Below are positions 41,345 to 62,207 of a stretch of 64,000 nt of DNA, in pieces. A program made the translations under genes and the position numbers. The stretch is taken from assembly GCA_050015455.1 (NCBI GenBank), contig JBEKBJ010000007.1, positions 11,876 through 75,875 of the forward strand, in the 5' to 3' direction. Below the pieces are notes generated by a model that saw only the letters and a list, made by a program, of their open reading frames with translations, had not been told where the DNA came from and did no database searches. The first letter of the stretch is position 1; each line of letters opens with the position of its first letter. The DNA comes from Candidatus Binatia bacterium (GTDB lineage Bacteria; Desulfobacterota; Binatia; HRBIN30).

Positions 41345-42067
41345 ATGAAGACGGAAGCTCTCTGCGGCTGGCTTCTAACAATCGCTGCCGCCACTGTGTT
41401 GCTGGGTCATGTGTCCGCTGCACCGGCGCGGGTTACTCCAGCTGATCAAGCACCGCCATCATCCCACAGCACGCACGATGCCACTACTCATCATTCTTTC
41501 GAAGACGTCGAGCACTGGGTGTCCCTCTTCGACGACCCGGCACGCGATGCGTGGCAGAAGCCGGCGAACGTGGTGGAAGCGTTGCAGCTTCGTGCCGGCA
41601 TGTGCGTGGCTGATCTCGGTGCTGGCACCGGCTACTTCAGCCGTTACCTGGCGGCTGCCGTTGGCGAGGCCGGTACCGTGTTCGCAGTCGACACCGAGCC
41701 GGGCCTGGTCACGCACCTACGCGAGCGTGCCGAGCACGAGCACACGCCGAACGTCATCCCCATCCTGGCTTCGGCCGACAACCCACGCCTGCCGGTTGGC
41801 GCCGTCGATGTCGTGCTGATCGTCGACACCGTTCATCACATCGACGACCGCATCAACTACCTACGACGGCTGCGCCATGTTCTGAAGCCCGGCGGCCGGG
41901 TCGTGGTCATCGATTTCAAGAAGCAGGATATCCCGGTCGGTCCGCCGCCTGAGCACAAGCTGGCACGCGAGCAGATCGTCGACGAGCTCAGCGCCGCCGG
42001 TTATCAGCTGGTCAGTGAGCCTGGCATTCTGCCGTATCAGTACTTCCTGATCTTTCAGCCGTCGTGA
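41345..42067 (+). CDS. Class I SAM-dependent methyltransferase with predicted signal peptide
   Basis: RDAWQKP, VADLGAGTGYF, LKPGGRVVVIDF; hydrophobic N-terminus ending VSA-AP. Confidence 0.85.
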   Translation: MKTEALCGWLLTIAAATVLLGHVSAAPARVTPADQAPPSSHSTHDATTHHSFEDVEHWVSLFDDPARDAWQKPANVVEALQLRAGMCVADLGAGTGYFSRYLAAAVGEAGTVFAVDTEPGLVTHLRERAEHEHTPNVIPILASADNPRLPVGAVDVVLIVDTVHHIDDRINYLRRLRHVLKPGGRVVVIDFKKQDIPVGPPPEHKLAREQIVDELSAAGYQLVSEPGILPYQYFLIFQPS

Positions 42068-42425
42068 GCCGTGTCTTGACCAGGGCGGCGCCCCGATGCG
42101 GAGCGCGGCCCTGGCACCGACCAAGCATCCGTCAGAAAGTCACGGGTAAGGTGTGGATCGCGTGCAGCCCAGAACCTTCTTTCCATTCTTGCTTAGGCTC
42201 AAAAGTACACGTTCCACGACACCCCGGTTTCTATCCAGCTGTGATTGAAGTCGCGTAGGCCGGTAATGCCAGCTCTGATCGCCTGCTGCGGCGTGAGGGT
42301 GAGGCGGCCTTCGAGGCCGATGCGCGTTTCGGTGCTGACGTCGCCGAGGGAGAAGCGCGTGATGGCGGCGAAGACGTGCGTCTGGCGCGGCGCATCGCTA
42401 AGGCATGCGGTCTTGCACTATTAGG

Positions 42426-42562
42426 GTGTATCGTCCCGATCCGAACTTGTGGCAAGATTACCGCATCCGGAGGCAGAGGAAATGAAGACGTGCTACTTCT
42501 GCAAGGGCCGGCTTCCGCAGGTGCTGCATTTGCAGTGCTCACGTAGAGCATCAGCGTGGTGA
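42426..42562 (+). pseudogene. Remnant of a DUF4258-YgiT(MqsA)-type toxin/antitoxin pair
   Basis: VYRPDPNLWQDYRIRRQRK* (DUF4258-like C-terminus) ATGA-coupled to MKTCYFCKG, which is truncated after 26 aa. Confidence 0.55.
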
Positions 42563-42817
42563 ACTCCAACCAGTTCAGTACCGGCCGCTCCAACCTGATA
42601 TCCGACTAAAGTGATCAAGATAGCATCAAGCCCGAGCCGCATTCCCTACGGCACTCTTCTCAGCCGCCAGGATGACGATCCCGGCAACCATGACCACACC
42701 GCCGGTCCGGAAGCGTCGTGGCCTTCTGAGGTCCGTTGGTGCCATTTGCCAGCTCAATGGCTGATCACCACCATTGACACCGTCGGGCCTGGGGCGTAGC
42801 GGGAGAGTTACGATTCT

Positions 42818-45800
42818 ATGGACTCGACCGCGCTCGCAACGAGACGCGCGGTGTTGCTAGGCGTCGCCTGCCTGGGTGTATCCGCGTTTGTCACACAGAT
42901 GGTGACGGTACGCGAGTTCCTGAGCCTGTTCTCCGGGAACGAGCTGATGCTCGGCCTTACGCTCGGCAACTGGTTATTGCTGACCGGTCTTGGCGGCGTG
43001 CTCGGCCGCTCCGCCGGCCGCATTCGCGACCCGATCCGCGCCCTGCTCCTCGCGCAGGTCGGTATCGCGCTACTGCCGGCGGCCCAGATCGCCGGGATCA
43101 GGATGACGAAACAGCTGCTTCCCGTGGGTCTGATGGTCGGGATCGGCGAGGCCTTCTGCGCCTCATTCGTCGTGCTGGTACCGTACTGCCTGCTCTCCGG
43201 ATTCCTGCTGGCCGTGTTCTCCGGCCTGGCATCGGCGCGCCGTGACTGGCGGCAGATCGGCGACGTCTACGCGCTCGACGCACTCGGCGGGATCGTCGGC
43301 GGCCTCCTGTTTTCGCTGTGTCTCGTCCGTTTCTTCGCGCCGTTTGAGATCGCAACGTTTCTCCTGGCTCTGAACCTGCTCGCGGCGGCCTGGCTGGCTC
43401 ACGCCACGGGCCGCCGGGTGATGCGCGCATCGGTCGTCGCCGTACTGTTGATCACGCTCGTGTTTCTCGGGCGCACCGACCTCGAACGCCGAACCGGCCA
43501 GGCCATGTTCCCGGGCCTGGACGTCGTACACGAGGAGTCGACACCGTATGGAAACGTTGCGGTCACACGTCAGGGCACACAATTCACCGTCTATGAGAAC
43601 GGCATCCCGGTCGGTGCGACGGAAGATGCCGCGGCTGCCGAGGAGGTCGTTCACTACGCATTAGTCCAGCATCCGGAGCCGCGAGAAGTTCTGCTCGTTG
43701 GCGGCGGTCTGGTCGGCGCCGAGCACGAGGTGGAGAAGTATCCAGTCGTGCGCATCGACTACGTTGAATTGGACCCGGCCGTCTTGCGCATCGCAGAGGC
43801 GCTCGCCGGAATGGGGAGCGATTCGCGCGTGCACGCGATCGCCGCCGATGCGCGCCGCTACGTGCAGACCATGCACGGCGCGTACGACGCGATCCTCATG
43901 GCTGTGCCGGATCCCTCGTCGGCGCAGCTCAACCGCTTTTACACCGTCGAGTTCTTCGCTGCGGTGCGCCGCGCGTTGCGTGCGGGCGGCGTGTTCAGCC
44001 TCGGCCTGAGCGGCGCCGAGAACTATGCCAACCCGGAGATCCGGCTCCTGGCCGCCGCGGTGTATCGCTCGCTGGTCTCGGTGTTTCCCAACGTGCTCGT
44101 CATCCCGGGCGCCCGGCAGTACTTCGTCGCCTCCGAGCGACCCCTCGGGTACGACATCGCCGCACGGCTGGAGGCAAGACATATCGCGACACGATATGTA
44201 CGCCGCGAATACCTGACCGCGAAGCTGACCGCGGACCGTCTGGCCGCGGCGCGCACGATGGTGACGTATCGCACGGAGGAGAATCATGACTTCCGTCCGC
44301 TCAGCTACTACGTCTACCTGCGGTATTGGCTGAGCCAGTTCGGCGGCGGGCTGCTGCTGCCGATATGCCTGGTTGCGGCGTTGCTGGCGCTCATCGGCGG
44401 CCTGCTCGTTGGCTCGGTCACGCGCGCGGCGCCGGCGGCTATTTGCGCCAGCGGCTTTGCCGGCATGGGGCTAGAAATCGTTCTGCTCATCGCCTTTCAG
44501 GCCATCTACGGCTACGTCTACCAGCAGATCGGCCTCATCGTCACGGGCTTTATGGCTGGTGCGGCTGCGGGCGCGGCGTGGTCCGGCCGGAGGCGTATAG
44601 GTGCTGCATCACTGCTGTTCCGTTTAGACGCGCTGTTGAGCACGGCCGGGTTCCTGTTGATACCGCTGCTGCGGTCATTGGGTGCGACGGACAACGCCAT
44701 CGTGCAAGCGGTGGCCCCACCGGTGATCTTCCCGCTGCTCAACGGCGTGATTGGGTTTCTGGTCGGCGCGCAGTTCCCTCCGGCGGCGCGTGTCATGTTC
44801 CGTACGGTCGAGGAGACCGCCGGCAACCTGTACGCGTTTGACCTGCTCGGTGCATGCCTTGGGGCGCTCATCGTCAGCACGTTTTGCGTCCCACTGATGG
44901 GAATCAGCGCGACATGCGCGCTGCTCGGCGGTGTAAAGCTCCTCAGTGCCGCGATGTTACGCCGGAGCACTGTGGCGATCGACGTTCCGTTTCCTCGGCC
45001 CCTTCCCGCCCGCGGCGCGGCGTTCGCCTTCGCCTTTCCTCTGCTCATTCTCGCCGGCATCGGCACGGTGATTGTCGCTGAGGAAACCAGCGGCGGAGTG
45101 TACGCCGTGTCGTTCGCACCGGCTTACTACTGGGCGCTGGTGGCCCTGCTCGCGCTGGGCATCGTCCGCGCCGTTGGGCTGCAGGGCGAGCCCTTGGGCG
45201 GGCTCCGCGGGTGGCCCTCGACGCTGGGCAGAATCCGCTCGGCGGTCCAGCGCTTCGGCCGGACCATCTATGAATCCACCAAGGTCAGCGTCTTGCGGTG
45301 GGTGTACTTCCTGAGCTTCTCCCTCGCCGTCAGCTACCCGGTCTTCCGCTGCTACTTCAGCGTGCCGTATCTCTTCTGCCATGTCTGCCCGCGCAAGTGC
45401 ATCTTCGGTTTTCTGCGGCCGTACCTAGTGCCGGCGGTCTTGATCATGAACCTCAAGAGGCGATTCTGGTGCTACCAGGCCTGTCCGATCGGCACTCTCA
45501 GTGACTGTCAGGCGCGCGTGTGTAAGGCCTCGCGGCGCGTGCCGGCGCGCTTGCGGGCCGTGTCTTTCGCCGTGCTGGGTTTCACGGCGGTTGCCTACTT
45601 CAAGATCATGTGGGATCTCGATCACCAACCGGCCGTCGCGCTCGACTGGTACACGTTCTTCTACAACAACCTGTTTGCGGTGAGCGCCGGAGTCATCGGC
45701 GTCGCGGTCGCACTGATCATGCTCGGCTACCGCCTGCGCCGCAGCTTCTGCGAGATTCTGTGCCCAGTGGGGGCCTTTTCCGATCTGCTGCTGCGAGGCG

Positions 45801-45862
45801 AACGCGCCTTACCAGGTACGGCTGCACCGGCCCCTGCCGAGGCGGCGGAGCGAGGCCGATGA
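42818..45862 (+). CDS. Polytopic membrane protein: spermidine-synthase-like SAM domain fused to a C-terminal NapH/MauN-like (Fer4_5) Cys-motif domain
   Basis: REFLSLFSGNEL, STPYGNV, VLLVGGG, VELDP, DARRYV, PDP..NRFYTVEFF; C-terminal CHVCPRKC, WCYQACPIG, FCEILCPVG. Confidence 0.8.
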   Translation: MDSTALATRRAVLLGVACLGVSAFVTQMVTVREFLSLFSGNELMLGLTLGNWLLLTGLGGVLGRSAGRIRDPIRALLLAQVGIALLPAAQIAGIRMTKQLLPVGLMVGIGEAFCASFVVLVPYCLLSGFLLAVFSGLASARRDWRQIGDVYALDALGGIVGGLLFSLCLVRFFAPFEIATFLLALNLLAAAWLAHATGRRVMRASVVAVLLITLVFLGRTDLERRTGQAMFPGLDVVHEESTPYGNVAVTRQGTQFTVYENGIPVGATEDAAAAEEVVHYALVQHPEPREVLLVGGGLVGAEHEVEKYPVVRIDYVELDPAVLRIAEALAGMGSDSRVHAIAADARRYVQTMHGAYDAILMAVPDPSSAQLNRFYTVEFFAAVRRALRAGGVFSLGLSGAENYANPEIRLLAAAVYRSLVSVFPNVLVIPGARQYFVASERPLGYDIAARLEARHIATRYVRREYLTAKLTADRLAAARTMVTYRTEENHDFRPLSYYVYLRYWLSQFGGGLLLPICLVAALLALIGGLLVGSVTRAAPAAICASGFAGMGLEIVLLIAFQAIYGYVYQQIGLIVTGFMAGAAAGAAWSGRRRIGAASLLFRLDALLSTAGFLLIPLLRSLGATDNAIVQAVAPPVIFPLLNGVIGFLVGAQFPPAARVMFRTVEETAGNLYAFDLLGACLGALIVSTFCVPLMGISATCALLGGVKLLSAAMLRRSTVAIDVPFPRPLPARGAAFAFAFPLLILAGIGTVIVAEETSGGVYAVSFAPAYYWALVALLALGIVRAVGLQGEPLGGLRGWPSTLGRIRSAVQRFGRTIYESTKVSVLRWVYFLSFSLAVSYPVFRCYFSVPYLFCHVCPRKCIFGFLRPYLVPAVLIMNLKRRFWCYQACPIGTLSDCQARVCKASRRVPARLRAVSFAVLGFTAVAYFKIMWDLDHQPAVALDWYTFFYNNLFAVSAGVIGVAVALIMLGYRLRRSFCEILCPVGAFSDLLLRGERALPGTAAPAPAEAAERGR

Positions 45863-47028
45863 GCGAGCCACAGCTCGACCGGCGGTTGTTCCTCAAGCGA
45901 GCCATCATGGCGGGGGCCGGACTGGCTTGGGGTGCCTACACCGTTCCCAGTTTGCTGCGCCAGAGCCCGAGCGCGGGGTTGCGCGTGGGATTCCCGAACG
46001 ACGCGCCGGCGAAACTCTGGCGGTGGTCGCGCGAGGCGGAGTGGTACGAAGCCCAGCGCGGGTTGGTGAGATGCGTGCTCTGCCCGCACGAGTGCATCCT
46101 GGGCGAGAACGACCGTGGGTTCTGCCGCACGCGCGTCGTTAAGAACGGCACGCTTTATACCGTCGCCTACGGCAACCCATGCACCCTCCACATCGATCCG
46201 GTGGAGAAGAAGCCCCTGTATCATTTCCTGCCCGGGACGCCGATTTTTTCGGTCGCCACTGCGGGCTGCAACCTGCGCTGCCTCAACTGCCAGAACTGGG
46301 AGATCTCACAGGTTAAGCCGGAGAAGACGGACAACGCTGATCTGTTGCCGGAACGCCTGGTGCAGGCCGTCGCCCAGCGGAACCTCCACCTGATCGCCTA
46401 CACGTACTCCGAGCCGATCGTTTTCTACGAATATGTCCGTGACACCGCGGCGCTGGCGCGTGCGCGCGGCATCCGCAACGTCCTCGTCACCGCCGGTTAT
46501 ATTTCAGAAAAGCCGTTGCGCGAGCTGTGCCGGGTCATCGACGCCGCCACGCTCGATGTGAAGGGGTTTGACGACGGTTTGTACAAGAAAGTCACTGGAG
46601 CGAAGCGCGACCCCATCCTGCGGGGGCTCGAGGTGATGCGTGAGGAAGGTCTGTGGCTCGAGGTCAGTCGGCTCGTTGTGCCGACGTATTCAGATGATCG
46701 GGACGATATCCGCGACCTCTGCCGCTGGGTGGTGCGCGCGCTCGGTCCTGGAACCCCGCTGCACTTCTTGCGGTTCCAACCCGCCTACCGGCTGAACGGG
46801 CTGCCGCCGACCCCCGTGCAGGTACTGGACGATGCGCGCCAGATCGCTCTGGACGCCGGTCTGCAGTTTGTCTTCGTCGGCAACGTTCCCGGGCATGCTG
46901 GCGAGAATACCGTCTGTCCGCGTTGCGGGCGCACGGTCATCGAGCGCCGCGGGTTCAGCGTTACGATCAACCAGCTCGACAACGGCTGCTGTCCGTGCGG
47001 CGAAAGGATTCCTGGAGTGTGGGCATGA
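45859..47028 (+). CDS. amrS: AmmeMemoRadiSam system radical SAM enzyme with twin-arginine signal
   Basis: DRRLFLK Tat motif; CVLCPHEC, DPVEKKPLYHFLPG, GCNLRCLNCQN, AYTYSEP, PLHFLRF; ATGA overlap. Confidence 0.9.
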   Translation: MSEPQLDRRLFLKRAIMAGAGLAWGAYTVPSLLRQSPSAGLRVGFPNDAPAKLWRWSREAEWYEAQRGLVRCVLCPHECILGENDRGFCRTRVVKNGTLYTVAYGNPCTLHIDPVEKKPLYHFLPGTPIFSVATAGCNLRCLNCQNWEISQVKPEKTDNADLLPERLVQAVAQRNLHLIAYTYSEPIVFYEYVRDTAALARARGIRNVLVTAGYISEKPLRELCRVIDAATLDVKGFDDGLYKKVTGAKRDPILRGLEVMREEGLWLEVSRLVVPTYSDDRDDIRDLCRWVVRALGPGTPLHFLRFQPAYRLNGLPPTPVQVLDDARQIALDAGLQFVFVGNVPGHAGENTVCPRCGRTVIERRGFSVTINQLDNGCCPCGERIPGVWA

Positions 47029-48623
47029 GTGAACATCGCAGCGGCACGAGTGAGGGGGCGCGTCGGCGACTCTCTCGCCTCCTCATCGAATTGGCGGTAA
47101 TGATTGTTCTCTGCGCCTCGGTGGCCCTTCTGATCTGGCGCGGCAAAGGAGGTGACGCGGCGCTCGTCGGGAAACCTGCCGCGCCGCTGGAGGTGCTCGC
47201 CGGCCCGCCGCGGGTGCGCACGCCGGCGGTCGCGGGGCAGTTCTATCCGTCCGATCCGGGAGAGCTGTTCAATGAGGTGACGCGCCTTCTCGCGTCGTCG
47301 CCGGCAATCGGCCTCGGGAGAGTGCACGCTATCCTCGTTCCGCACGCCGGCTATGCCTTCAGCGCGACGGTTGCCGCGGCGTCCTTCCGCGAGCTGGATC
47401 GGAACTTCCGGCGTGTCTTTATTCTGGCGTCCAACCACAATGGCGCCGTGAACTTCGCGGGGGTCTCGCTTCCCGATGAGACGCGCTACGCCATTCCGGG
47501 CGCCGAGATCCCGCTCTCTGCAGTGCTCAACGATCTGCGTGACCCGACGCTCTTCGTTCACGAGCCCCTGGCGCACGTGATGCACATGGTCGAGGTGGAG
47601 CTGCCGTTTCTGCACCAATTGCGCGGGCGGCCGAAAGCGGCGGATTACGCGATCGTGCCGATGATTCTCGGCCGCATGGACACCAACGCAATAGACCGCC
47701 TGGCCGCCATCCTTGACGGCTACGCCGACCCCACCACGGTCTTCGTCTTCAGTGTCGACCTGTCCCATTACTATCCTGACCAGACGGCGCGCCAACTGGA
47801 CCAGTACACCGTCGATGCCCTGATGGCCCGTGATCGCTCGGCGATCAGAAGGGCCATTACCGACGGCGACCAAGTTCTCGACACGATGCTGGCCCTGGTC
47901 CAGCGGCGGGGGTGGCAGCCGACATTTTTGATGGCGCGCAACTCGGGGGACGCCACCGGTGAAAAAGACCACGTCGTCGGCTACGCTGCCATCGCCTTCC
48001 ACGAACCGTTTTCCCTGAGCGAGGCGGAGAAGCGCGATTTGCTGGCCTTCGCGCGCACGCGAGTGGAGGAGCAGGTACGGCACGGACGCGTGCCGGAGCC
48101 GGACGGCGCGTGGCTCGATCAGCATCCGATCTTTCGCATTCCCCGCGGCGTCTTCGTTACGCTCGAGAAGAAAGGGCATCTCCGTGGGTGTGTCGGAGAC
48201 CTTATGCCCTCCAAACCCCTGTACCTCGGCGTCCAGGAGTCAGCGGTCAACGCTGCGGTGAATGACCATCGGTTCCAGCCGGTGACCGAAGATGAGCTGC
48301 GCGACCTTTCCATCTCGCTCTCTGTCTTGGATTATCCCGCGCGCGTGTATGTGAGCCGGCCGGAGGAATACCTAGAAGTCCTCAAGCCGGGGAAAGACGG
48401 CGTGATCCTCGACTACAACGGCAGGCGATCGACGTTTCTGCCGCAGGTCTGGCGCGACCTACCCAAGCCGGAGGATTTCCTGTCGAGCCTTGCCCTCAAG
48501 CAGGGTTCGCCCGCCGACGCCTGGCGGTCTCCGTCCGCCATCCTTTACAGGTACGAGGCCTACGCCTTCGGGGAGGACTCGATCGTGCATGCGACGGGGC
48601 AGCCGAACTCAGCCTTGAAGTGA
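47025..48623 (+). CDS. Membrane-anchored MEMO1 (AmrB)-AMMECR1 (AmrA) fusion
   Basis: N-terminal TM; RTPAVAGQFYP, PHAGY, DLSHY, VVGY (MEMO); GVFVTL, LRGCVG, TFLPQV (AMMECR1); ATGA overlap. Confidence 0.9.
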   Translation: MSEHRSGTSEGARRRLSRLLIELAVMIVLCASVALLIWRGKGGDAALVGKPAAPLEVLAGPPRVRTPAVAGQFYPSDPGELFNEVTRLLASSPAIGLGRVHAILVPHAGYAFSATVAAASFRELDRNFRRVFILASNHNGAVNFAGVSLPDETRYAIPGAEIPLSAVLNDLRDPTLFVHEPLAHVMHMVEVELPFLHQLRGRPKAADYAIVPMILGRMDTNAIDRLAAILDGYADPTTVFVFSVDLSHYYPDQTARQLDQYTVDALMARDRSAIRRAITDGDQVLDTMLALVQRRGWQPTFLMARNSGDATGEKDHVVGYAAIAFHEPFSLSEAEKRDLLAFARTRVEEQVRHGRVPEPDGAWLDQHPIFRIPRGVFVTLEKKGHLRGCVGDLMPSKPLYLGVQESAVNAAVNDHRFQPVTEDELRDLSISLSVLDYPARVYVSRPEEYLEVLKPGKDGVILDYNGRRSTFLPQVWRDLPKPEDFLSSLALKQGSPADAWRSPSAILYRYEAYAFGEDSIVHATGQPNSALK

Positions 48624-48792
48624 CAAAAACTACGCCGCGTTCAGCCGCGTTCAGTAGCCGATCGAGACGGTTGGCCGCATAGCGCATCGTCGGCACGCTG
48701 GCCAACCGCAGTCGAACACGAAACGACCATCCCTCCGGCGCGCGCCGGCACCGCACGTAGATCGGCAGGACGGTTGGGTGTAAGCTGACAAG

Positions 48793-51700
48793 ATGTTTTG
48801 CCCGAAGTGCGGCGCAAGAGGTAGCGACGAGGTTCTCTCCTGTGCCGAGTGCGGAGCTGCGCTCGGTCCGGCGTGCCTCGCCTGCGCCGCTCAGAACCTG
48901 CCGGGGTCGCGGTTCTGTCGGATGTGTGGACGGCCGCTGAGCGAGCCGTCGCCCGATCGGCCGAGCCGCTCTCCCGCTTCGTACACTCCACGCCATCTCA
49001 CAGAGAAGATCCTCACCTCCCGAGCCGCGCTCGAAGGGGAGCGAAAGCAAGTGACGGTCCTCTTCGCCGACGTGAAGGGGTCGCAGGAGATCGCGCAGCG
49101 CGTCGGCCCTGAGGCCTGGCACGGGATTCTCGATCGTTTCTTCGAGATCCTGTCCGCCGGAGTGCATCGGTTCGAAGGGGCCATCAACCAGTACACCGGC
49201 GACGGGATCATGGCGCTCTTCGGTGCGCCGATCGCCCACGAGGATCACGCGCAGCGGGCCTGCTTCGCAGCACTGCACCTGAAGGAGGAGCTGGCCTCAT
49301 TCAGCGCCGAGCTGCGCCGCACGCGAAGCCTCGACTTCTCGGTCCGCATGGGCCTCAACTCCGGCGAGGTCGTCGTGGGTCGCATTGGGGACGATCTACG
49401 GATGGACTATACGGCCCAAGGACACACCGTCGGCCTCGCCAGCCGCATGGAGTCGCTCGCCGAGCCGGGCACGATATACCTCACTCGGGTGACGGCAGCG
49501 CTGGTGTCGGGATTCTTCCGGCTGAAGGACCTCGGGAAGTTCTCCGTCAAGGGCGAGCGACGGAGCCTTCGAGTCTACGAGCTTGAGGGAGTTGGCTCGG
49601 TGCGGACGCGCTTCGACCAATCGGCCTCTCGGGGCCTGTCGCCGTTCGTCGGGCGAGAGGCTGAGATGGCGCGGCTCGAAAAGAGCCTTGAGGCCGCCGT
49701 CTCCGGAAGCGGCCATGCGGTTGGGGTGGTCTCGGAGGCCGGCTTTGGAAAGAGCCGACTCTTCTGGGAGTTCGCCGCGCAGTGTCGCTCTCGGGGAATC
49801 CTCGTCCTTCAGGCTCGCGGAGTACTTCACGGGCGGGCGATTCCGCTCTTGCCGGTCGTCGAACTGCTACGCGCGTACTTCGACGTTGGAGAAAACGACG
49901 CCGCCGCCTCGGTGCGCGAGAAGGTCGCCGGCCGGCTTGCCCTCCTCGGGGAGCCGTTCCGCGAAGCGCTGCCGTTCGTCTTCGATCTCCTACGGGTGCC
50001 CGAGACCGACCATCCCGCGCCGCGGATCGATCCGGAGGCTCGGCGCCGCCAGGTCCTCCGCCTGCTAAGGGATCTCTTGCGAGCCCGCAGCGATCAAGAA
50101 CCGATCGTCATCGTCGGCGAGAATCTTCAATGGTTCGACCGGGGAAGCGAGGCGGTTCTGGATCAACTCATCTCGGCACTTGCCGGAACCCGAACTCTCG
50201 TCGTCGTGAGCTACCGTCCCGATTACAAGCCCCCCTGGCGCGAACGCACAGGATTTCAAGAAATGTCCCTCGATCCGCTCGCGGCGGAGGCGACCTTGAG
50301 GCTGGCGGGCGAGCTCCTTGGCGACCATCGCTCGGTCCGCAGCCTCACCCTGCGCATGGCCGAGCGGAGTGGCGGCAATCCGTTCTTCGTCGAGGAAGCG
50401 ATCCGTTCGCTCAGGGCCAGTCACGAGATCACTGGGCGCACGGGGCGCTATCGAGCCGTGCGACGCGTCGAGGAGATCGAGATCCCGGCAACAGTCCAGG
50501 CGGTTCTCGACGCGCGGATCGACGCCCTCAAGGAGCGGGAGAAGGTCGTGCTCCAGACGGCGGCGGTCATCGGAAGGGAGTTCCCGTTGGCGGTGCTCCA
50601 GAGGATGGTCCCCTATTCGAAAGCGGAGCTGCGCGCCGCCCTCAAGGTACTCAGCGACACGCAGCTGCTGTCGCCGCCGCGATACGGTGGCGAGCCGCTG
50701 TACGCCTTTCGCCACTCCCCGACGCAGGAGGCGGCCTATCGATCTCAGCTCGTGCCACGCCGCCAGCAGCTCCACGCTGAGGTCGCCCGCATCATCGAAG
50801 AGCTTCATCCGGGAGCCGACGAGCACGCGGCGCTGATCGCGCACCACCGCGAGAGCGCCGGCGACGAGCGCGCGGCGGCGGACTGGTACACCCGCGCCGC
50901 GCGCTGGGTGGGATCCGATGACCCTGCCGAAGCATACCGCCACTGGCAGAAGGTACGCGCGCTCCTCGCCCGCGACGACGGCGCTGCCGACGCGCTTCCG
51001 TTGCGCGTGTTGGCGCTGATTCAGATGCTGAACCTGAGCTGGCGTCTCGGCGTCGCCGAAGAAGAGGTGCGAGCGCTCTTCGAGGAAGTCCGGGATCTCG
51101 CCAAGCGGAGCGAGAGCAAGGACGCCCTGGCCAGAGCGTACTTAGCCTACGCCGTCGTTCGCGGAATGGCCGGTCACCTCGAGGAGTCGTTGAAGAACGT
51201 CCGCGAGGCGACGCAGCTCGCGGAGGACTCGGAGAACGCGGATCTCAATCTCGGTCTGAAGATGGCCTTCGCCTACTTCGGGGCGGCAGCCGGGCGGTTG
51301 CGGGAATCCTTGGCGACCACGGAGGCCGCGCTCTCCGGGAATGGCAGATATCCGACTCGGAGCGCCGAGCTGGCAGGGATCGACCCGGCCGTCTTCTTGA
51401 CCGCATTTCGCGGCCACTTGCTCGGCCAGTTGGGGAAGCTCACCGAAGCTCGGGAGGCACTCGACGCCGCGCTGGAACTCGCGGCCGAGCACGTCGATTC
51501 GGAGGTTCGCGGATGGATCCACGGGTGGATCGTCGTGCTCGCCCGCGCCACCGGCGAGACGGCGGACGTGCTCGAACATGCCAACCGCGGACTCGAGATC
51601 GCAGAAAGGACAGGGAGTTTCTTCTCGCAGGTCGTCGCGTTTGCGCATCTTGGACGCGCCCTCGCCCTCCGCGGGGAGTGGCAAGAGGCGATCGGCGCCT

Positions 51701-52155
51701 TCGAGAAATCGCTTGAGATTGCCCGCGCGAAGAGGATTGGATGCGAGATCGAAGCGGGAATTGTGGCCGATCTCGCCGAAGTCAACTCCTCGATCGGCAA
51801 TCACCAGGCGGCGCTGGCGCTCGCCTGGGAAGCGATCGAAATGGCGCACCGGCGCGGTGTGAAGGTAGAGGAATGCCGAGCGCACCTCGTCAACGCGCGC
51901 GTGCTCCTCCGGGCCGAGGGCGCGCCCAAGCAACGCGCCGTCCGCAAGGCGCTGGAAACGGCGGCGGAGCTCGCGCGCGCGACCGAGGCGCGCGTCTACG
52001 AGCCCTTCATCCACCTCGAACTCGCGGAGGTGGCGAGGCTGGCAGGAGACGAGGCGGCTCGCGCCAGCGCGCTGCGAACCAGCTCGGAGCTGTTCGCGGA
52101 GATGGGCGCCACCGGCCATCAGGCGACGGCTGCCGGCGACTCGGATCTCGGATAG
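48793..52155 (+). CDS. Zn-ribbon + class III adenylate/guanylate cyclase + STAND-type ATPase + TPR protein
   Basis: CPKC..CAEC..CLAC..CRMC; ERKQVTVLFAD, YTGDGIMALFG; FVGREAE, EAGFGKSRL, SGGNPFFVEE; helical C-terminus. Confidence 0.9.
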   Translation: MFCPKCGARGSDEVLSCAECGAALGPACLACAAQNLPGSRFCRMCGRPLSEPSPDRPSRSPASYTPRHLTEKILTSRAALEGERKQVTVLFADVKGSQEIAQRVGPEAWHGILDRFFEILSAGVHRFEGAINQYTGDGIMALFGAPIAHEDHAQRACFAALHLKEELASFSAELRRTRSLDFSVRMGLNSGEVVVGRIGDDLRMDYTAQGHTVGLASRMESLAEPGTIYLTRVTAALVSGFFRLKDLGKFSVKGERRSLRVYELEGVGSVRTRFDQSASRGLSPFVGREAEMARLEKSLEAAVSGSGHAVGVVSEAGFGKSRLFWEFAAQCRSRGILVLQARGVLHGRAIPLLPVVELLRAYFDVGENDAAASVREKVAGRLALLGEPFREALPFVFDLLRVPETDHPAPRIDPEARRRQVLRLLRDLLRARSDQEPIVIVGENLQWFDRGSEAVLDQLISALAGTRTLVVVSYRPDYKPPWRERTGFQEMSLDPLAAEATLRLAGELLGDHRSVRSLTLRMAERSGGNPFFVEEAIRSLRASHEITGRTGRYRAVRRVEEIEIPATVQAVLDARIDALKEREKVVLQTAAVIGREFPLAVLQRMVPYSKAELRAALKVLSDTQLLSPPRYGGEPLYAFRHSPTQEAAYRSQLVPRRQQLHAEVARIIEELHPGADEHAALIAHHRESAGDERAAADWYTRAARWVGSDDPAEAYRHWQKVRALLARDDGAADALPLRVLALIQMLNLSWRLGVAEEEVRALFEEVRDLAKRSESKDALARAYLAYAVVRGMAGHLEESLKNVREATQLAEDSENADLNLGLKMAFAYFGAAAGRLRESLATTEAALSGNGRYPTRSAELAGIDPAVFLTAFRGHLLGQLGKLTEAREALDAALELAAEHVDSEVRGWIHGWIVVLARATGETADVLEHANRGLEIAERTGSFFSQVVAFAHLGRALALRGEWQEAIGAFEKSLEIARAKRIGCEIEAGIVADLAEVNSSIGNHQAALALAWEAIEMAHRRGVKVEECRAHLVNARVLLRAEGAPKQRAVRKALETAAELARATEARVYEPFIHLELAEVARLAGDEAARASALRTSSELFAEMGATGHQATAAGDSDLG

Positions 52156-55869: not shown

Positions 55870-56052
55870 CGGGCTCTCCTCACGCAGCAAGTTTGTACTG
55901 GAGCACAGCGGCGTTGTAAACCCCGCACGGGTGGGCGCACCTTCCGGGTATTCCCGCTTGCGAACGCGCCAACCACGGAACGCTGCCGGGCGGCGGTATT
56001 TTTCGGACCACCCGTTGTGCTAAAGGGCCAATAGATTCGGTAAGGTTGGGCG

Positions 56053-56477
56053 GTGTTAGACGTCCAAATTCGGCGGGATGACGTTCAGGAATTGAGCAAC
56101 CGCGATCAGGTCGCTGCGCTCTTTGCGGCGCTCGGCTATCAGATCGACTCGCGCCTTACCCATTCGTCGGCCAATCTCGGAATCACGAGCGAGCCCCTGG
56201 TTCGCCAGGTCACACACCTGGAGCGGCTGGCCGATCAGGAAGGGCTGCGATCGACGCGGTGTTGTTCCGTTGTTACGGCTTGTTCGACGATGGTGCTCGG
56301 TGCGTCCGCAGAAGGCTGGAAGACGTGCTATGAACGGAACCCGGCAGTTGGAAATTGATCTGCAACACCTCGTCTTCGACCTCTACGGCTTGACACCCGA
56401 GGAAGTGCAGCTCCTTCCGCACCACCGCCCCGCCGCGCGACCCGCTGGCGTTGGTGGAGGCGCAGACATTGCCGTGA
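56053..56477 (+). pseudogene. Collapsed type IIG/Eco57I-like restriction-modification locus
   Basis: N-terminal VQELSNRDQVAALFAALGY..ERLADQEGL joined to a C-terminal IDAVLFRCYGL..RLEDVL* (stop 56333), then ATGA-coupled LVFDLYGLTPEEVQLL(fs)RTTAPPRDP. Confidence 0.55.
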
Positions 56478-56709
56478 GTTGAAGCGTCAAGGGAGCCAGG
56501 CCATACTGAACAAAATGAATCCGCGCGCCTTCTCGCCGAGGCCCGGGACCTAGCGAGGTCGTGCGTGGAGTTGATTGGCCTCGGCTCAATACCGGTGACG
56601 TTGCTGGCGAGCTTGACGACAGCGACAGTCTCCCCATCGCAATGCCAACACCTCCCCGCAGCGACAGCCCGTGAGAGCCAGCAGCTTGATTCGGGGCCCG
56701 TCTCTCGAA

Positions 56710-56845
56710 CTACGGCAGCCCGGCGGTTCTCCGAAGCACGTCAATATCGAAAGTGCCGATCGGGACTTTCTCAGCTCGGTAGGACCAGTTTCCCGGGCTC
56801 ATGAATACCATGTCTAGCAGGTCGTGACCAGCAGCGTCGACCTCG
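56710..56845 (-). pseudogene. 3' end of the arylsulfotransferase-like gene, displaced by the transposon
   Basis: EVDAAGHDLLDMVFMSPGNWSYRAEKVPIGTFDIDVLRRTAGLP*, in frame with ...NLVFTEV at 62208 once the element and one TSD are removed. Confidence 0.88.
56838..56845 (+). repeat. Target-site duplication, left copy (CGACCTCG)
   Basis: Identical 8-mer at 62208-62215. Confidence 0.93.
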
Positions 56846-56966
56846 GGTACCGGGTGAATTCACCCAGTCGGGCCGCTGGGTGATTTTGGCTCCGGCGTAG
56901 GCAACAGCTCGCGCTCACTGTACTATCCGAAGACGGACAACCACCGACCCAAACCCGGACAATGGC

Positions 56967-58103
56967 CTATCGAGTCTTTGGGGCGAACTCTATGATCTGA
57001 GCTGAGGGTTGGATTTGAGGGGTTACGGGGGAAGGGATCGGCACAGCAGCAATTTCTTGAAGCGTTCGAGGATACCAGTGCAACGCGTGCGCGAGGTCGG
57101 CCGGCAGCATATTGTAATCCTTACGGACCTGTTCAAAAGCCAGCGAGATTAGTTCTGGATTTTGGGCATCAAACTCACCAAGCTCGTGTTTTCTGCCCCA
57201 ACGCGCGCTGATGTACTTGAACGCCCTTTGATACTGGAGCGAGTCTATGAGCCGTAGCTCGTGAGCGCGGAATACCATCGCTTGCACGCTTGTCCGCCAG
57301 CGTTGCTTCAGCCTCAGCAGTACGTCCCATCTTAGCCAGCCACGGGAATCGCAGGCGCCGCTTGCCCGAAACTCCCGTGCGAAGCCGGTTCGGGGAAGCA
57401 AAAACGCGCCGCCAAAATGATCCGCTTCACGTTCCGTCTCGGGCGTACCAGTCGGTTTTCCCTTGTGCAAGACAAGGTGCCCGCATTCGTGCGCGAGATC
57501 CATTTCGGATCTCGAAACAGATTTCTCGTTCAGAATCACCGCGCTCCGAGTTCCGGGCCTGGAGAACGCATCTAGGTTTTGGGGAAGATCTCGGAATTTA
57601 GCAACGACCACACCGGCCAATTCCAAGACCCTGGTCATGCCAGCAATAGGAACGTCCAATCCCAAGCCCCACTGCATACGACAGTGCTCCGCCGCTCGTT
57701 CGATATCTTCGGCGTTCTCGGCGCGAATGATTGGCAGGTTGGTTTCCGGAAGAGATACTGCCGAATCTAGGTATGAGATGAGCATGCCCAAGAGCGTGCC
57801 GTGAGCCAACGCTCGTTGGCGAATCCAGAGCGGCGTGGACGCGCGCTTTCGAAACGCGCACTCCTCGTCCTGAAACGCCTCGGTAAGTGGTTCCTGGAAG
57901 AACTGGACTTCGAATCCAAGCAACTCGCCCAGCGCAGCGAGGAGCAGGCCACTAGGTTTCTTACGCCCGCTTTCCAAGAATGCAATGAACTGCGGGTAGA
58001 TGTCGTTGAGTTCCTTGCCAACCTGAGAGAGAGTCAGGCCCCGAAATGTGCGTGCGAGCCTAAGTTTTTCGCCGAAGAATATCTGACTATTCTTTGCTCT
58101 CAT
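56967..58103 (-). CDS. XRE-HTH + ImmA/IrrE Zn-metallopeptidase (RmrA-like antitoxin)
   Basis: GEKLRLARTFRGLT..LESGRKKP HTH; AHECGHLVLH (HExxH), EREADHFGGAFLLP. Confidence 0.88.
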   Translation of the reverse strand: MRAKNSQIFFGEKLRLARTFRGLTLSQVGKELNDIYPQFIAFLESGRKKPSGLLLAALGELLGFEVQFFQEPLTEAFQDEECAFRKRASTPLWIRQRALAHGTLLGMLISYLDSAVSLPETNLPIIRAENAEDIERAAEHCRMQWGLGLDVPIAGMTRVLELAGVVVAKFRDLPQNLDAFSRPGTRSAVILNEKSVSRSEMDLAHECGHLVLHKGKPTGTPETEREADHFGGAFLLPRTGFAREFRASGACDSRGWLRWDVLLRLKQRWRTSVQAMVFRAHELRLIDSLQYQRAFKYISARWGRKHELGEFDAQNPELISLAFEQVRKDYNMLPADLAHALHWYPRTLQEIAAVPIPSPVTPQIQPSAQIIEFAPKTR

Positions 58104-58728
58104 CGCCACTTCGTTTTTTGGTTTGTTTGGAACCAACATGTGGCCGGGGAAGCTTGCGGGCTGGCTTGTTGATAGGGGTGACCGGGGCGGGAGGCTCCTC
58201 AGCGGCGTCGTCGATGACCCACTCGTTGAAGATTTCGCCCTTGAGATTGGCCTGTTCGATCACAACGCGAATGCCGCGATGATCATCATCCGTTTCAACA
58301 GCCATGAGCCAGAAACGTTTTTCCTCGTCGGGAAGCTCTGCTGGCAGAAAACTGTTTTCCAGCTCCGCAAAGTCACGTTGGTGTTTCTTCAGTTCACGGA
58401 GACCGGACCTAAGGTACCGTCCCCTTGGCCTGAGATGATCGCCGCGGAAGATTCTAAGCGGCGTGCCTTCAATGAGCAGTACGTAATAGAGGGGATTCTC
58501 ACGCTGCACGGTTAGCCAGGGAATTTCGCCTTTGCGACATTTCTCCCAGAGTTGGTTGCCCGTTCGTTCATAGACACGAGACCCGAGACCAAATGGCCCG
58601 TCACCTTTTTGCGGCTGCTGCTCATCGACAGCATCGCTTCTAATTTCGAGCACGAGTTTCTTAAGAAATAACAGGCGTTCTTTCGTAAGATGGGGATCAA
58701 TTCCCCAAGGCTTGGCCATTCGCAGCAA
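58087..58728 (-). CDS. Hypothetical protein upstream of HTH-ImmA gene; putative toxin (RmrT-like position)
   Basis: 213 aa, strong SD GAGGAGG, overlaps the downstream peptidase gene by 17 bp; no recognisable catalytic motif. Confidence 0.65.
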   Translation of the reverse strand: MLRMAKPWGIDPHLTKERLLFLKKLVLEIRSDAVDEQQPQKGDGPFGLGSRVYERTGNQLWEKCRKGEIPWLTVQRENPLYYVLLIEGTPLRIFRGDHLRPRGRYLRSGLRELKKHQRDFAELENSFLPAELPDEEKRFWLMAVETDDDHRGIRVVIEQANLKGEIFNEWVIDDAAEEPPAPVTPINKPARKLPRPHVGSKQTKKRSGDESKE

Positions 58729-58788
58729 ACCTCCTCCTCAGTTCTTCCGTGATCCTAATGCCTGAGGTGGGCGGAAAAGTCAAGCCCT

Positions 58789-58883
58789 TTTTCTACCAAT
58801 TGGCCAGTTCTCTACCAATTGCGGGCTCTTCTATCGGCCGACGGATTTTCTACTCACGATCGACTTTTCTACCAAATGGCGCT
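58789..58883. repeat. Five-unit array with exact 19-bp period (core TTTTCTAC)
   Basis: CTA(C/T) cores at 58793, 58812, 58831, 58850, 58869; degenerate sixth unit near 58887. Confidence 0.8.
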
Positions 58884-58905
58884 TTCCTAACCCGTACTCT
58901 ACCAC

Positions 58906-59874: not shown

Positions 59875-59956
59875 GGGGTTCTCCCTCTTCGCCCACGAAC
59901 GTGCTACGGTTGAGCCGCCCGACGGCCTTGCGCGATGTACGTCGCGTGGGGTTCGC

Positions 59957-59997
59957 GCCCTGCCCGGTGTTAGCGCACCGGGTGGGGCGGGGTTTTT
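59957..59997. other. Stem-loop in the transposase leader (terminator-like on + strand)
   Basis: GCCC-TG-CCCGGTG-TTAGCG-CACCGGG-TG-GGGC followed by GGGGTTTTT. Confidence 0.6.
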
Positions 59998-60007
59998 CGG
60001 TTCCTTC

Positions 60008-60099
60008 CATGCTGCAATTGTAATGACAGTTGCAGCACAAGTCAAGAGCGAAAATGAAGATTGACTTGTCCGGCGTTCGTCATTACAATGGCAGGCATG
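60008..60099. promoter_or_regulatory. Back-to-back mirror-image sigma70 promoters with a shared operator-like motif
   Basis: Minus: TTGACT(60045-40)-17-TACAAT(60022-17)-6 nt-ATG; plus: TTGACT(60061-66)-17-TACAAT(60084-89)-7 nt-ATG; both contain GTCATTACAAT. Confidence 0.8.
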
Positions 60100-60276: not shown

Positions 60277-60300
60277 ATCCGCCGCGCCGCGGTCGAGCGT

Positions 60301-62162: not shown

Positions 62163-62207
62163 AACGAGACCAAATTCACCCACCGCCGCCCAAAGTCACC
62201 CGGTACC

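Follow-up and report, generated by a model that had tools for sequence, protein, structure and literature searches.

Introduction

The closest described relative of the operon reported here is the canonical AmmeMemoRadiSam system, defined by three protein families, namely TIGR04337 for the radical SAM enzyme AmrS, TIGR04336 for the Memo-like protein and TIGR04335 for the AMMECR1-like protein. The nearest characterised radical SAM enzymes, i.e., the glycyl-radical-enzyme activases such as PflA, are cytoplasmic and devoid of leaders. We know of no demonstration of oxygen-sensitive, SAM-dependent radical chemistry outside the cytoplasm and neither SAM nor a low-potential reductant is, to our knowledge, known to occur in the periplasm, which counts against any outward-facing model.

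Proteins exported by Tat carry a leader of consensus S/T-R-R-x-F-L-K (PMC7317946; PMC3383694), in which even a change as conservative as Arg to Lys is badly tolerated, and they are moved folded and cofactor-loaded (PMC7317946). An exported Fe-S protein can retain its uncleaved leader as an anchor, as for the Rieske protein (PMC7317946). In the searchable literature, no description of a SAM-cleaving radical enzyme as Tat passenger was found, nor any paper describing an outward-facing AmmeMemoRadiSam operon. With respect to electron supply, PF12801 proteins are proposed transmembrane electron carriers, those of the NapH-like type being proposed to take electrons from quinols and pass them across the membrane to extracytosolic enzymes; a radical SAM client has 0 occurrences in the main text of this source (PMC8238504).

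Results

Operon Layout and Family Assignment

The window, i.e., the whole stretch of 64,000 nucleotides analysed, holds a membrane partner gene, amrS and an amrB-amrA fusion, which constitute one conserved unit (Table 1). All three lie on the + strand and are coupled by two ATGA overlaps, exactly where the original prediction had placed them. The family identities proposed at the same time were borne out, since all three models are matched above their cut-offs, namely TIGR04337 by AmrS (344 bits, cut-off 220, residues 62-388) and TIGR04336 (171.3 bits, cut-off 26) and TIGR04335 (173.5 bits, cut-off 99) by the fusion. On AmrS, the CX3CX2C motif (C137, C141, C144) is invariant across 52 sequences and, with two further four-Cys groups in the same set (C72/75/79/89 and C353/356/378/380), suggests up to three Cys-ligated metal sites. 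PflA-family models align with residues ~130-290 of AmrS but stay far below their cut-offs (65.4 bits for TIGR02493, cut-off 231.75), and no glycyl radical enzyme is encoded near the operon. Signal-less AmmeMemoRadiSam paralogues are also present in the same genome.

Table 1. Features of the operon, with positions in the window
Feature	Position	Strand	Basis
Membrane partner gene (P0001)	42818..45862	+	1014 aa; ORF and translation
Predicted MFS N-domain, TM1-6, residues 1-196	42818..43405	+	AF2 helices, hhalign, VIA-align
SpeE-fold domain, residues 221-511, between extra helices TM7/TM8, predicted periplasmic	43478..44350	+	Foldseek, phmmer, positive-inside counts
Predicted MFS C-domain, TM9-14, residues 534-721	44417..44980	+	AF2 helices, hhalign, VIA-align
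NapH-like module, residues 722-1014, about six helices	44981..45859	+	Pfam PF12801, invariant Cys
ATGA start/stop overlap, membrane gene/amrS	45859..45862	+	Read in sequence
amrS (P0002)	45859..47028	+	389 aa from ATG at 45859
Twin-arginine-type AmrS leader, residues 1-30	45859..45948	+	Sequence, conservation
ATGA start/stop overlap, amrS/amrB-amrA	47025..47028	+	Read in sequence
amrB-amrA fusion (P0003)	47025..48623	+	532 aa from ATG at 47025
N-terminal hydrophobic anchor of AmrB-AmrA, residues 19-38	47079..47138	+	Sequence, conservation
Memo-like domain, residues 65-325	47217-47999	+	TIGR04336
AMMECR1-like domain, residues 339-515	48039-48569	+	TIGR04335

It could be argued that the features described below are artefacts, i.e., that starts were mis-called, that the operon is decaying or that ordinary cytoplasmic proteins carry the motifs by chance, the more so as high-GC DNA offers many alternative starts and the ORFs reach upstream of both ATGs. 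Both starts, however, are fixed by the ATGA overlaps, each of the three proteins exceeds its curated cut-offs and the catalytic Cys are intact, the N-terminal features recur in different phyla and in archaea, and another genus has the operon at 87-88% identity; such an artefact is thus very improbable.

Conservation and Co-occurrence

Over 121 related loci, the leader-bearing AmrS, a signal-bearing AmrB-AmrA and the membrane gene occur as a set. Of 41 genome loci for which the membrane protein served as seed, 34 hold AmrS and 37 AmrB-AmrA (tblastn, E <= 1e-5), and the membrane gene is present in 54 of 80 metagenome loci seeded with AmrS. It is missing upstream of AmrS in 8 metagenome loci where at least 3 kb of this flank is available, and it is also missing from 2 loci in which both flanks exceed 3 kb. 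Comparison across genomes, the check suggested along with the original prediction, revealed strong co-occurrence and was thus passed. Among 41 relatives' genomes, G000 and G017 alone carry a full-length ortholog of the membrane gene, at 88% identity, and they alone have an AmrS matching from residue 1. Among 151 Acidobacteriota genomes, with the cut for the AmrS type (E <= 1e-105) picked after the distribution was seen, both genes occur in 44, the AmrS type only in 9, the membrane gene only in 4 and neither in 94; the two are at most 12 kb apart in 20 genomes, and in the 9 genomes with the AmrS type only, the membrane gene was not found at E <= 1e-40. Operon-bearing DNA was recovered from wetland, peat and sediment metagenomes, and because these are anoxic settings an exposed radical SAM cluster could survive there.

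Export Signals

AmrS starts with M-S-E-P-Q-L-D-R-R-L-F-L-K-R followed by the weakly hydrophobic AIMAGAGLAWGAYTV, its first residues being MSEPQLDRRLFLKR. The claimed twin-arginine signal, i.e., DRRLFLK plus a hydrophobic stretch, is thus read directly in the sequence, with D7-R8-R9-L-F-L-K13 at 45877-45897, and it is conserved in homologues; since RR and hydrophobic residues occur within the first 45 residues of 109 of the 120 best homologues, the leader is not a chance feature. In the related loci, a twin-basic motif is present in 97 of 107 evaluable AmrS N-termini by pattern and in 106 after reading the 10 misses. RR itself accounts for 44 of the 107 by pattern and 52 once the misses were read by eye, KR for 30-31 and RK for 23. 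Because KR or RK replaces RR in about half of the distant relatives, the Tat reading is weakened for them, and their leader could be interpreted as a weak Tat signal, as a Sec signal or in some other way. Leader-bearing AmrS cluster together in a quick tree of 38 rows and may have a single origin.

The N-terminal transmembrane segment preceded by RRR, as announced for the Memo-AMMECR1 fusion, was likewise recovered, AmrB-AmrA reading ...GARRRLSR (R13-R14-R15 and R18) and then LLIELAVMIVLCASVALLIW; a hydrophobic N-terminal 13-mer (mean KD at least 2.0) is found in 48 of 50 evaluable homologues. Among neighbouring proteins, those of the DUF362 family start with NRR(D/E)FLK and an NrfC-like ferredoxin with NRRQILL. 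TatC is encoded in the carrier genome G000 (254 bits, contig C13) and in four of five other carrier genomes; it was not found in the carrier genome G043, whose completeness is unknown. In two archaeal loci (L098 and L011), TatC directly adjoins the membrane gene.

Alternatively, the leader might dock or tether AmrS at the cytoplasmic face, e.g., to the partner's cytoplasmic loops and inner four-Cys site (see below), with the chemistry remaining cytoplasmic and the product leaving via the MFS part to AmrB-AmrA. The twin-arginine motif of the full S/T-R-R-x-F-L-K type and the mildly hydrophobic stretch, shared by AmrS of the window and 109 of its 120 nearest homologues, speak against such a role, as does TatC next to the membrane gene, whereas the KR and RK pairs, poorly tolerated by Tat, would suit it. 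The AmrS leader of the window shows no clear signal-peptidase site, and no Tat-signal family (PF10518/TIGR01409) was listed at E <= 1 for the first 50 residues or at E <= 0.01 for the whole protein, such short models being often lost to HMMER filters. Docking would also place AmrS where SAM and reductant are already on offer and near a four-Cys site predicted to face the cytoplasm, but it would leave the outer four-Cys site without a client if nothing redox-active lay outside, and the partner proteins bear export signals of their own. Docking appears improbable. As for the periplasm-facing variant originally predicted, the export signals on separate proteins, the SpeE-like domain predicted to be periplasmic, the genomic TatC and its position beside the membrane gene lend it support, and that the operon proteins work outside the cytoplasm is, in our view, fairly probable.

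MFS Part and Topology of the Membrane Partner

P0001 scores 56.3 bits against the NCBIfam model NF037959 'fused MFS/spermidine synthase', the cut-off being 40; on modelling, it goes beyond a spermidine-synthase look-alike and combines an MFS fold, a SpeE-fold domain and a NapH-like module. The AF2 models, one with mean pLDDT 88.7 and pTM 0.85, contain 7+7 helices, and an internal 6+6 repeat relates residues 8-200 to 534-721 (hhalign, probability 98.65%, E 4.5e-16, 187 columns). By VIA-align, the best structural match is VMAT2 (9kqa; Z 28.6, rmsd 3.8, 347 aligned), with further matches to VAChT (Z 28.1), SotB (Z 26.6) and NorA (Z 26.0) and dozens of MFS chains at Z > 20. The membrane part is as such modelled as an MFS transporter fold of 6+6 helices; the Pfam search reported no MFS family for P0001. 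Acidic residues are conserved inside the helices (E33, E42, D154, E553 and D675). The matches span lipid and amine exporters (SPNS2, Z 24.5; Spns1, Z 23.2; FLVCR2, Z 25.0) as well as drug antiporters, and therefore the cargo is not named by the fold.

The topology is based on hydropathy, charge counts and fold homology. K+R-rich loops (1.69, 3.31, 1.69, 2.17, then 1.22, 3.42, 2.12, 1.90) alternate along P0001 with loops of the opposite side (1.03, 1.18, 0.13, then 0.01, 0.76, 0.0), for which reason the SpeE-fold domain is predicted to lie outside, i.e., on the side opposite the N-terminus.

SpeE-fold Domain

Pfam PF01564 (Spermine_synth) matches residues 274-395 at 67 bits, and the domain aligns with 1uir both by Foldseek (E 1.5e-10, TMt 0.70) and by phmmer (5e-16). 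In this alignment, E317, D344 and D365 are kept, the first two being the ribose- and adenine-contacting acids of SpeE, and the domain is predicted to be of the adenosyl-binding type. The dcSAM-binding acid of GGG(D/E) is replaced by Leu298, the catalytic Asp, namely the first of D-x-x-D-P, by Ala362 (Asn in the family consensus), and the YHE motif by AAE. None of the SpeE equivalog cut-offs was reached (best 161.1 bits against 472). With A362 and L298 in place of needed acids and a score below these cut-offs, P0001 is unlikely to be a working aminopropyltransferase.

NapH-like Module

PF12801 (Fer4_5) is matched by P0001 in two stretches (34.5 bits, cut-off 22) and by the module itself at 39.8 bits, while Pfam gave no further Fer4 family and no FMN-binding one; pLDDT is mostly 79-94 in the second AF2 model. 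The fused homologues share eight Cys without exception (50 of 50), and these are predicted at opposite faces, i.e., Cys845/854/857/861 at the outer and Cys885/889/978/982 at the inner one, and the CX3CP-type motifs adjoining transmembrane helices (C885-C889-P and C978-C982-P) are equally invariant. We infer that these Cys would bind Fe-S clusters and carry electrons across the membrane. By established redox values, however, quinols have too positive a potential for the reduction of a radical SAM cluster, which speaks against them as donors here. The fusion, a trait of this lineage, is present in 51 of 119 homologues among the matches listed; by motif scan, an Fe-S gene occurs in only 13 of the 121 related loci, which weakens the case for such an electron route in most relatives.

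The original prediction, partly supported as a whole, had the membrane protein provide a SAM-dependent step and/or electrons. The second half gains from the fused NapH-like module and its two invariant four-Cys sites at predicted opposite faces. The first is unsupported as worded, since the loss of the catalytic Asp and of the dcSAM-binding acid, together with the MFS fold, makes supply or transport likelier than catalysis.

Discussion

We lean towards an envelope-facing, self-contained version of AmmeMemoRadiSam, the partner of which would supply a small molecule and electrons. AmrS would acquire its Fe-S clusters in the cytoplasm and be exported folded by Tat, perhaps remaining tethered by its uncleaved leader as Rieske proteins do, AmrB-AmrA would be inserted N-in/C-out, and the catalytic domains would gather beside the SpeE-fold domain at the outer face of the cytoplasmic membrane. 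The MFS part would carry outward a small, probably cationic molecule, i.e., SAM or the substrate or product of the pathway; SAM is favoured because both outward partners are adenosyl-compound binders, albeit as a tentative choice. The two Cys sites would bind Fe-S clusters, through which electrons would pass to the far side and there reduce the radical SAM cluster. Candidates for the modified substrate are envelope lipids, isoprenoids and other constituents of the envelope.

In the same compartment, the partner could also play another role. AmrS would then leave the cytoplasm carrying its SAM, which would serve either as a true cofactor or in a single turnover; the MFS part would move the substrate or product of the pathway, such as a lipid, an isoprenoid or a cationic metabolite, and that substrate would be modified or held by the SpeE-fold domain, which would have no part in SAM supply. 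The passage of folded, cofactor-loaded proteins through Tat and the lipid and amine exporters among the MFS matches agree with it, and the lack of a nearby Fe-S conduit in most relatives would fit a low continuous need for reductant, although the fused Fe-S wire suggests repeated reduction, at least in this clade. Work by Burroughs and colleagues in 2019 reportedly linked Memo contexts to isoprenoid modification, but no lipid or isoprenoid genes were seen in the conserved neighbourhood of the operon, and the missing catalytic Asp and GGG(D/E) acid make transferase activity of the SpeE-fold domain doubtful. Overall, this scheme is rather unlikely.

Returning to supply by the partner, the full model combines Tat-exported AmrS, SAM export by the MFS part to the adenosyl-binding domain, which would pass it on, a two-cluster NapH-like wire bringing electrons from the cytoplasm and Memo/AMMECR1 finishing on an envelope substrate; in its entirety, it is possible yet doubtful. 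If true, it would be the first case of radical SAM chemistry beyond the cytoplasm and, among prokaryotes, the first exporter dedicated to SAM.

Comparison with Known Systems

As in canonical AmmeMemoRadiSam, all three families are matched and encoded together here; the differences lie in the AmrS leader, the anchored AmrB-AmrA and the dedicated MFS/SpeE-fold/NapH-like membrane protein, and the leader-bearing AmrS forms a tree cluster of its own. With the glycyl-radical-enzyme activases, AmrS has the radical SAM core in common. From SpeE (Thermus thermophilus 1UIR, Thermotoga maritima 1JQ3), with which it shares the two-part fold, the P0001 domain differs in its position between transmembrane helices and in its predicted outward orientation. 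Similarly, the 12-helix 6+6 fold is common with DHA1/VMAT-type MFS antiporters and exporters (Z 26-28.6), but the central loop of P0001 is enlarged by a pair of extra helices and an outward domain of 290 residues.

The PF12801 match and the CX3CP motifs after transmembrane helices are shared with NapH/NosR/PceC-type proteins. Compared with NapH, the module of P0001 is minimal (~290 residues) and lacks the C-terminal di-cluster (2x[4Fe-4S]) ferredoxin domain, and compared with the NosR/PceC type it lacks the FMN-binding domain; unlike NapH-like proteins, it is fused to an MFS/SpeE-fold protein, with a radical SAM enzyme as proposed client. Finally, Tat-exported Fe-S proteins, i.e., Rieske and NrfC/HybA-type ferredoxins, bear a twin-arginine leader as AmrS does and likewise need their Fe-S clusters before export, but whereas these are electron carriers, AmrS is a SAM-cleaving radical enzyme.

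Operon organisation and genomic context

The operon comprises three genes, namely those of a membrane protein (P0001), of the radical SAM enzyme AmrS (P0002) and of a fusion of the Memo-like AmrB with the AMMECR1-like AmrA (P0003). Their coupling by ATGA overlaps, as put forward in the original prediction, is borne out by the sequence, ATGA being found at 45859-45862 and at 47025-47028, so that each downstream ATG overlaps the TGA of the preceding gene. The operon is a member of the AmmeMemoRadiSam system by all three family tests, i.e., P0002 against TIGR04337 (AmmeMemoRadiSam radical SAM enzyme; 344 bits for a cut-off of 220), residues 65-325 of P0003 against TIGR04336 (Memo-like protein B; 171.3 bits) and residues 339-515 of P0003 against TIGR04335 (AMMECR1-like protein A; 173.5 bits). 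AmrS further exhibits three groups of invariant cysteines (C72/75/79/89, C137/141/144 and C353/356/378/380). Both N-termini read as originally described, that of AmrS opening with the twin-arginine-type leader MSEPQLDRRLFLKR, then AIMAGAGLAWGAYTV, and that of the AmrB-AmrA fusion with basic residues (RRR..R) ahead of the hydrophobic segment LLIELAVMIVLCASVALLIW. A scan of positions 42000-49000 was uninformative, as it returned no promoter-like site and only 3 terminator-like sites where 5.0 were expected. No RNA data set was listed as carrying the operon.

Genes of the operon and their location in the window
Feature	Position	Strand	Basis
Membrane partner gene (P0001), 1014 aa	42818-45862	+	ORF and translation
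amrS (P0002), 389 aa	45859-47028	+	ORF and translation
amrB-amrA fusion (P0003), 532 aa	47025-48623	+	ORF and translation

Flanking the operon is the gene of a class I SAM-dependent methyltransferase (41345-42067, + strand; Methyltransf_25/11, E 4e-17), the N-terminus of which resembles a cleavable signal peptide (MKTEALCGWLLTIAAATVLLGHVSAAP...), so that a further SAM-type enzyme seems destined for the outside. Directly 3' of the operon (48793-52155, + strand) is encoded a 1120-aa protein combining zinc ribbons and TPR repeats with adenylate/guanylate cyclase and AAA_16 ATPase domains. Neither this cyclase, nor the methyltransferase, nor a PcRGLX-like protein also encoded in the flanks recurs in any of the 121 related loci, and all three were rejected as parts of the system; as such, the unit consists of the three operon genes. 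Farther away, some 25 kb upstream, a membrane-lipid gene cluster (10870-17340; LPG_synthase_TM, CDP-alcohol phosphatidyltransferase, polyprenyl synthetase and family-21 glycosyltransferase) has no shown link to the operon, and the region 56000-62200, of low GC content (0.55-0.59 versus about 0.64 elsewhere) and bearing two Peptidase_M78 (IrrE-like) genes and a DUF4411 gene, resembles an inserted island.

Conservation and distribution of the unit

The three genes form a conserved unit rather than a local accident. Searching one-genome-per-species contigs with P0001 as a seed gave 41 loci, where tblastn (E <= 1e-5) recovered AmrS in 34 (missed in L011, L017, L025, L032, L033, L042 and L049) and AmrB-AmrA in 37 (missed in L011, L025, L033 and L049), several of the contigs with misses stopping near the membrane gene. 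These loci belong mostly to Acidobacteriota, and also to Eremiobacteraceae, Limnocylindrales, Chlamydiota and one Aenigmatarchaeota MAG; the whole operon is moreover present in one 'delta proteobacterium' MAG at 85-87% identity. Respective to metagenomes, 80 loci were kept using AmrS as a seed and the membrane gene was present in 54, usually immediately upstream of amrS. Among the 26 lacking it, L111 and L129 alone are flanked by more than 3 kb in both directions, the flank of the others being short in at least one, and 8 metagenome loci have at least 3 kb 5' of amrS with no membrane gene in that stretch. Altogether, members of this clade were seen in DPANN archaea (0.7-Mb genomes) and, among bacteria, in Acidobacteriota, Planctomycetota, Chlamydiota, Chloroflexota, Eremiobacterota, Desulfobulbales and the 'delta proteobacterium' MAG.

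A strong co-occurrence of leader-bearing AmrS with the membrane gene across genomes, on which the original prediction depended, was found. In the 41 genomes of the window's order, a full-length P0001 orthologue (88%) occurs only in the window's own genome (G000) and in G017, and only these two have an AmrS matching from residue 1, the remaining AmrS matches starting at query residue 53 or beyond with at most 45% identity. In 151 Acidobacteriota genomes, the membrane gene (E <= 1e-40) occurs in 48 and this type of AmrS in 53 (best match at E <= 1e-105, a cut set after the distribution had been seen): both are present in 44 genomes and absent from 94, with 9 genomes having the AmrS type alone and 4 the membrane gene alone, and the two genes lie no more than 12 kb apart in 20 genomes. 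The 107 genomes with any AmrS include G069, flagged unpublished, which was placed among those with neither. Since relatives are not independent, these counts are reported without a statistical test.

In a quick maximum-likelihood tree, 38 leader-bearing AmrS sequences, which may share a single origin, form a cluster separate from that of 28 signal-less paralogues found in relatives. Elsewhere, G000 encodes two signal-less AmrS (contigs C49 and C18), two more AmrB (C176 and C3) and one AmrA (C44); with these paralogues retained, the exported set would be an addition and not a replacement. One of these AmrB/Memo paralogues (C176:4519-5559, - strand, locus L005; TIGR04336, 230.6 bits) stands alone, far from any AmrS, and its N-terminus is signal-peptide or lipoprotein-like (MTIMRPHGTQWLLVLAAVVSLGC...).

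Putative export signals and Tat machinery

The leader is conserved among homologues of this AmrS, with RR and hydrophobic residues present within the first 45 residues in 109 of the best 120 homologues, the 11 exceptions being mostly truncated gene calls beginning inside the hydrophobic stretch. In the fetched loci, a twin-basic pattern was recognised in 97 of 107 evaluable N-termini, namely (i) RR in 44, (ii) KR in 30, and (iii) RK in 23; visual inspection of the 10 non-matching N-termini added 8 RR and 1 KR, leaving only L099 without a motif. The motif takes the form S/T-K-R-x-F-L-K or T-R-K-E-F-L-K in 53-54 of the 107 relatives (metagenome loci, L101-L171). None of the explanations considered accounts for so systematic a deviation from RR; a Tat targeting review describes even the conservative Lys substitution as badly tolerated (PMC7317946). 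The leader may work differently in KR/RK lineages, i.e., in about half of the more distant relatives; the window's own clade has RR. Tat-signal family profiles reported no match to the AmrS leader, and a genome-wide scan of G000 for RR-x-F gave 4 matches with a pattern so strict that AmrS itself fell out. Reading the leader cysteine of some relatives as a lipobox was rejected, this residue lying only about 10 residues past RR in the near clade and being absent in the window.

As for AmrB-AmrA, a hydrophobic N-terminal 13-mer is present in 48 of 50 evaluable homologues, and those of Acidobacteria resemble ordinary cleavable signal peptides. Extracellular Fe-S proteins are described, in the same review, as acquiring their clusters in the cytoplasm prior to Tat export (PMC7317946). 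A division of labour where the Cys-rich AmrS carries a Tat-type signal and the cofactor-poor AmrB-AmrA a Sec-type signal, as their N-termini suggest, would fit these known export rules. TatC itself is present in G000 and in 4 of 5 other carrier genomes, and was not found in G043, a possibly incomplete genome. In two archaeal loci, tatC directly adjoins the membrane gene in divergent orientation (L098:12794-13495 and L011:7052-7885). In L011, which comes from an Aenigmatarchaeota genome of 0.7 Mb, the membrane gene is bordered on its other side by an ftsY-like gene, and this archaeon has a leader-bearing AmrS (TRREFIKK) together with an anchored AmrB-AmrA on a separate contig (L176).

Other proteins with similar leaders are encoded nearby in some lineages. 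Upstream of and beside amrS, a DUF362 (PF04015) protein beginning with NRR(D/E)FLK is encoded in six annotated Acidobacteria-type loci (L013, L015, L016, L018, L022 and L038), L022 additionally encoding a DUF6599 protein and a 548-aa PF12801 polyferredoxin. DUF362 was rejected as a core part, being absent from the operon of the window and encoded by six genes elsewhere in G000. Just upstream of the membrane gene, five of these six Acidobacteria-type lineages encode an NrfD-like membrane protein and an NrfC-like ferredoxin, the latter likewise bearing an RR leader.

The membrane partner

Homologues of P0001 appear in databases under the names 'spermidine synthase', '4Fe-4S binding protein' or 'fused MFS/spermidine synthase'. 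P0001 itself matches Pfam Spermine_synth (residues 274-395) and Fer4_5 as well as the NCBIfam 'fused MFS/spermidine synthase' (56.3 bits, cut-off 40), and scores far under every spermidine-synthase equivalog cut-off. Two AlphaFold2 models, the first with a pLDDT of 76.6 and confident over residues 1-720, the second, from 80 sequences, with a pLDDT of 88.7 and a pTM of 0.85, both exhibit 7 helices, a mixed alpha/beta domain (about 221-511), 7 further helices and a helical membrane module. Residues 8-200 align with 534-721 (hhalign probability 98.65%, E 4.5e-16, 187 columns), and the helical core superposes on VMAT2 (Z 28.6, rmsd 3.8, 347 aligned), VAChT (28.1), SotB (26.6), NorA (26.0) and dozens more with Z > 20, the stated noise for helical bundles being Z of about 13-14. 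From these homologous halves and superpositions, P0001 has a 6+6 MFS fold, where the extra helices TM7 and TM8 would, according to the models, take the inserted domain to the opposite side of the membrane. The termini of MFS proteins are cytoplasmic. Over 78 aligned homologues, K+R counts are 1.69, 3.31, 1.69, 2.17, 1.22, 3.42, 2.12 and 1.90 for the 'inside' loops and 1.03, 1.18, 0.13, 0.01, 0.76 and 0.0 for the 'outside' ones, an alternation as expected for N-in and thus for the predicted outside position of the inserted domain. Conserved acidic residues are present inside the helices (E33, E42, D154, E553 and D675).

A SpeE fold is seen in the inserted domain, which Foldseek matches to 1uir (E 1.5e-10, TMt 0.70). 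Aligned to 1UIR, the ribose/adenine-contacting acids E317 and D344 are kept, as is D365, whereas (i) the acid of GGG(D/E) is replaced by L298, (ii) the first Asp of D-x-x-D-P by A362 (Asn in the family consensus), and (iii) YHE by AAE; we take the replaced residues to be the catalytic and dcSAM-specific ones of SpeE structures. Judging from this alignment, the domain probably still binds an adenosyl compound and is unlikely to act as an aminopropyltransferase.

The C-terminal module (residues 722-1014) matches PF12801, and in the ESM Atlas residues 716-1014 score at best 0.82 to PF12801 clusters, a value below 0.9 and thus a lead only. Among 119 listed homologues of P0001 (1-720), 51 are fused to such a module, 67 are short (up to 830 aa) and 1 is neither; eight cysteines are invariant in 50 of 50 fused homologues. 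K+R counts alternate strongly around its six predicted helices (3.26, 0.06, 5.64, 1.34, 6.66, 0.64 and 6.46), so that C845/854/857/861 would lie on the outer side and C885/889/978/982 on the inner one, which suggests two [4Fe-4S] clusters that would make up a short wire through the membrane. For 'NapH-like' PF12801 proteins, a role in transmembrane electron transfer to enzymes outside the cytosol has been proposed, in an article whose main text carries no mention of radical SAM, Memo or spermidine (PMC8238504). The module is encoded by a separate adjacent gene in L100 and L131, and larger PF12801 polyferredoxins are encoded in L016, L022 and L047.

Proposed working

Gene linkage, leader conservation, domain folds, invariant cysteines and a charge-based topology are what is shown; from them, an outward-facing system can be proposed where AmrS would be exported folded via Tat and may stay tethered by an uncleaved leader, in parallel with Rieske proteins, for which such tethering is reported in the Tat review (PMC7317946). 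AmrB-AmrA would be anchored N-in/C-out, so that all catalytic domains would gather on the outer face beside the SpeE-fold domain, with electrons supplied by the Fe-S module and a small molecule by the MFS part. SAM is favoured for the latter because both outward partners are built as adenosyl-binders, the nearest MFS structures are organic-cation exporters or antiporters and the in-helix acids are conserved; as an MFS fold does not name its cargo, this assignment is nonetheless doubtful. Against the model stand the KR or RK leaders of about half of the more distant relatives, the lack of a Tat-signal family match and the electron supply. On established redox values, quinol, put forward as the donor to NapH-like proteins, has too positive a potential to serve a radical SAM cluster, and most relatives have no electron conduit nearby, a motif scan of the fetched flanks finding such an Fe-S gene in only 13 of 121 loci.

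Significance and comparison with known systems

To our knowledge, radical SAM enzymes are regarded as strictly cytoplasmic owing to their need for SAM, for a low-potential reductant and for protection from oxygen, an assumption that would fall if a widespread clade were indeed built for export. Both the Memo and AMMECR1 partners have human disease-linked relatives. In the literature, no account of an exported radical SAM enzyme was found, a text linking radical SAM and Tat signals concerning an rSAM-matured effector and not an exported enzyme; Burroughs et al. (2019) may already cover membrane-linked Memo contexts. At the level of titles, no publication naming AmmeMemoRadiSam was found on its function. 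With a predicted compartment and a membrane partner, the search for the substrate of this system, so far without an assigned function, becomes narrower, and the compact three-gene operon, which could be expressed anaerobically, opens Tat dependence, the transport of SAM and electron transfer across the membrane to direct testing. Compared with canonical AmmeMemoRadiSam, the system of the window differs in its predicted compartment and in its dedicated membrane partner.
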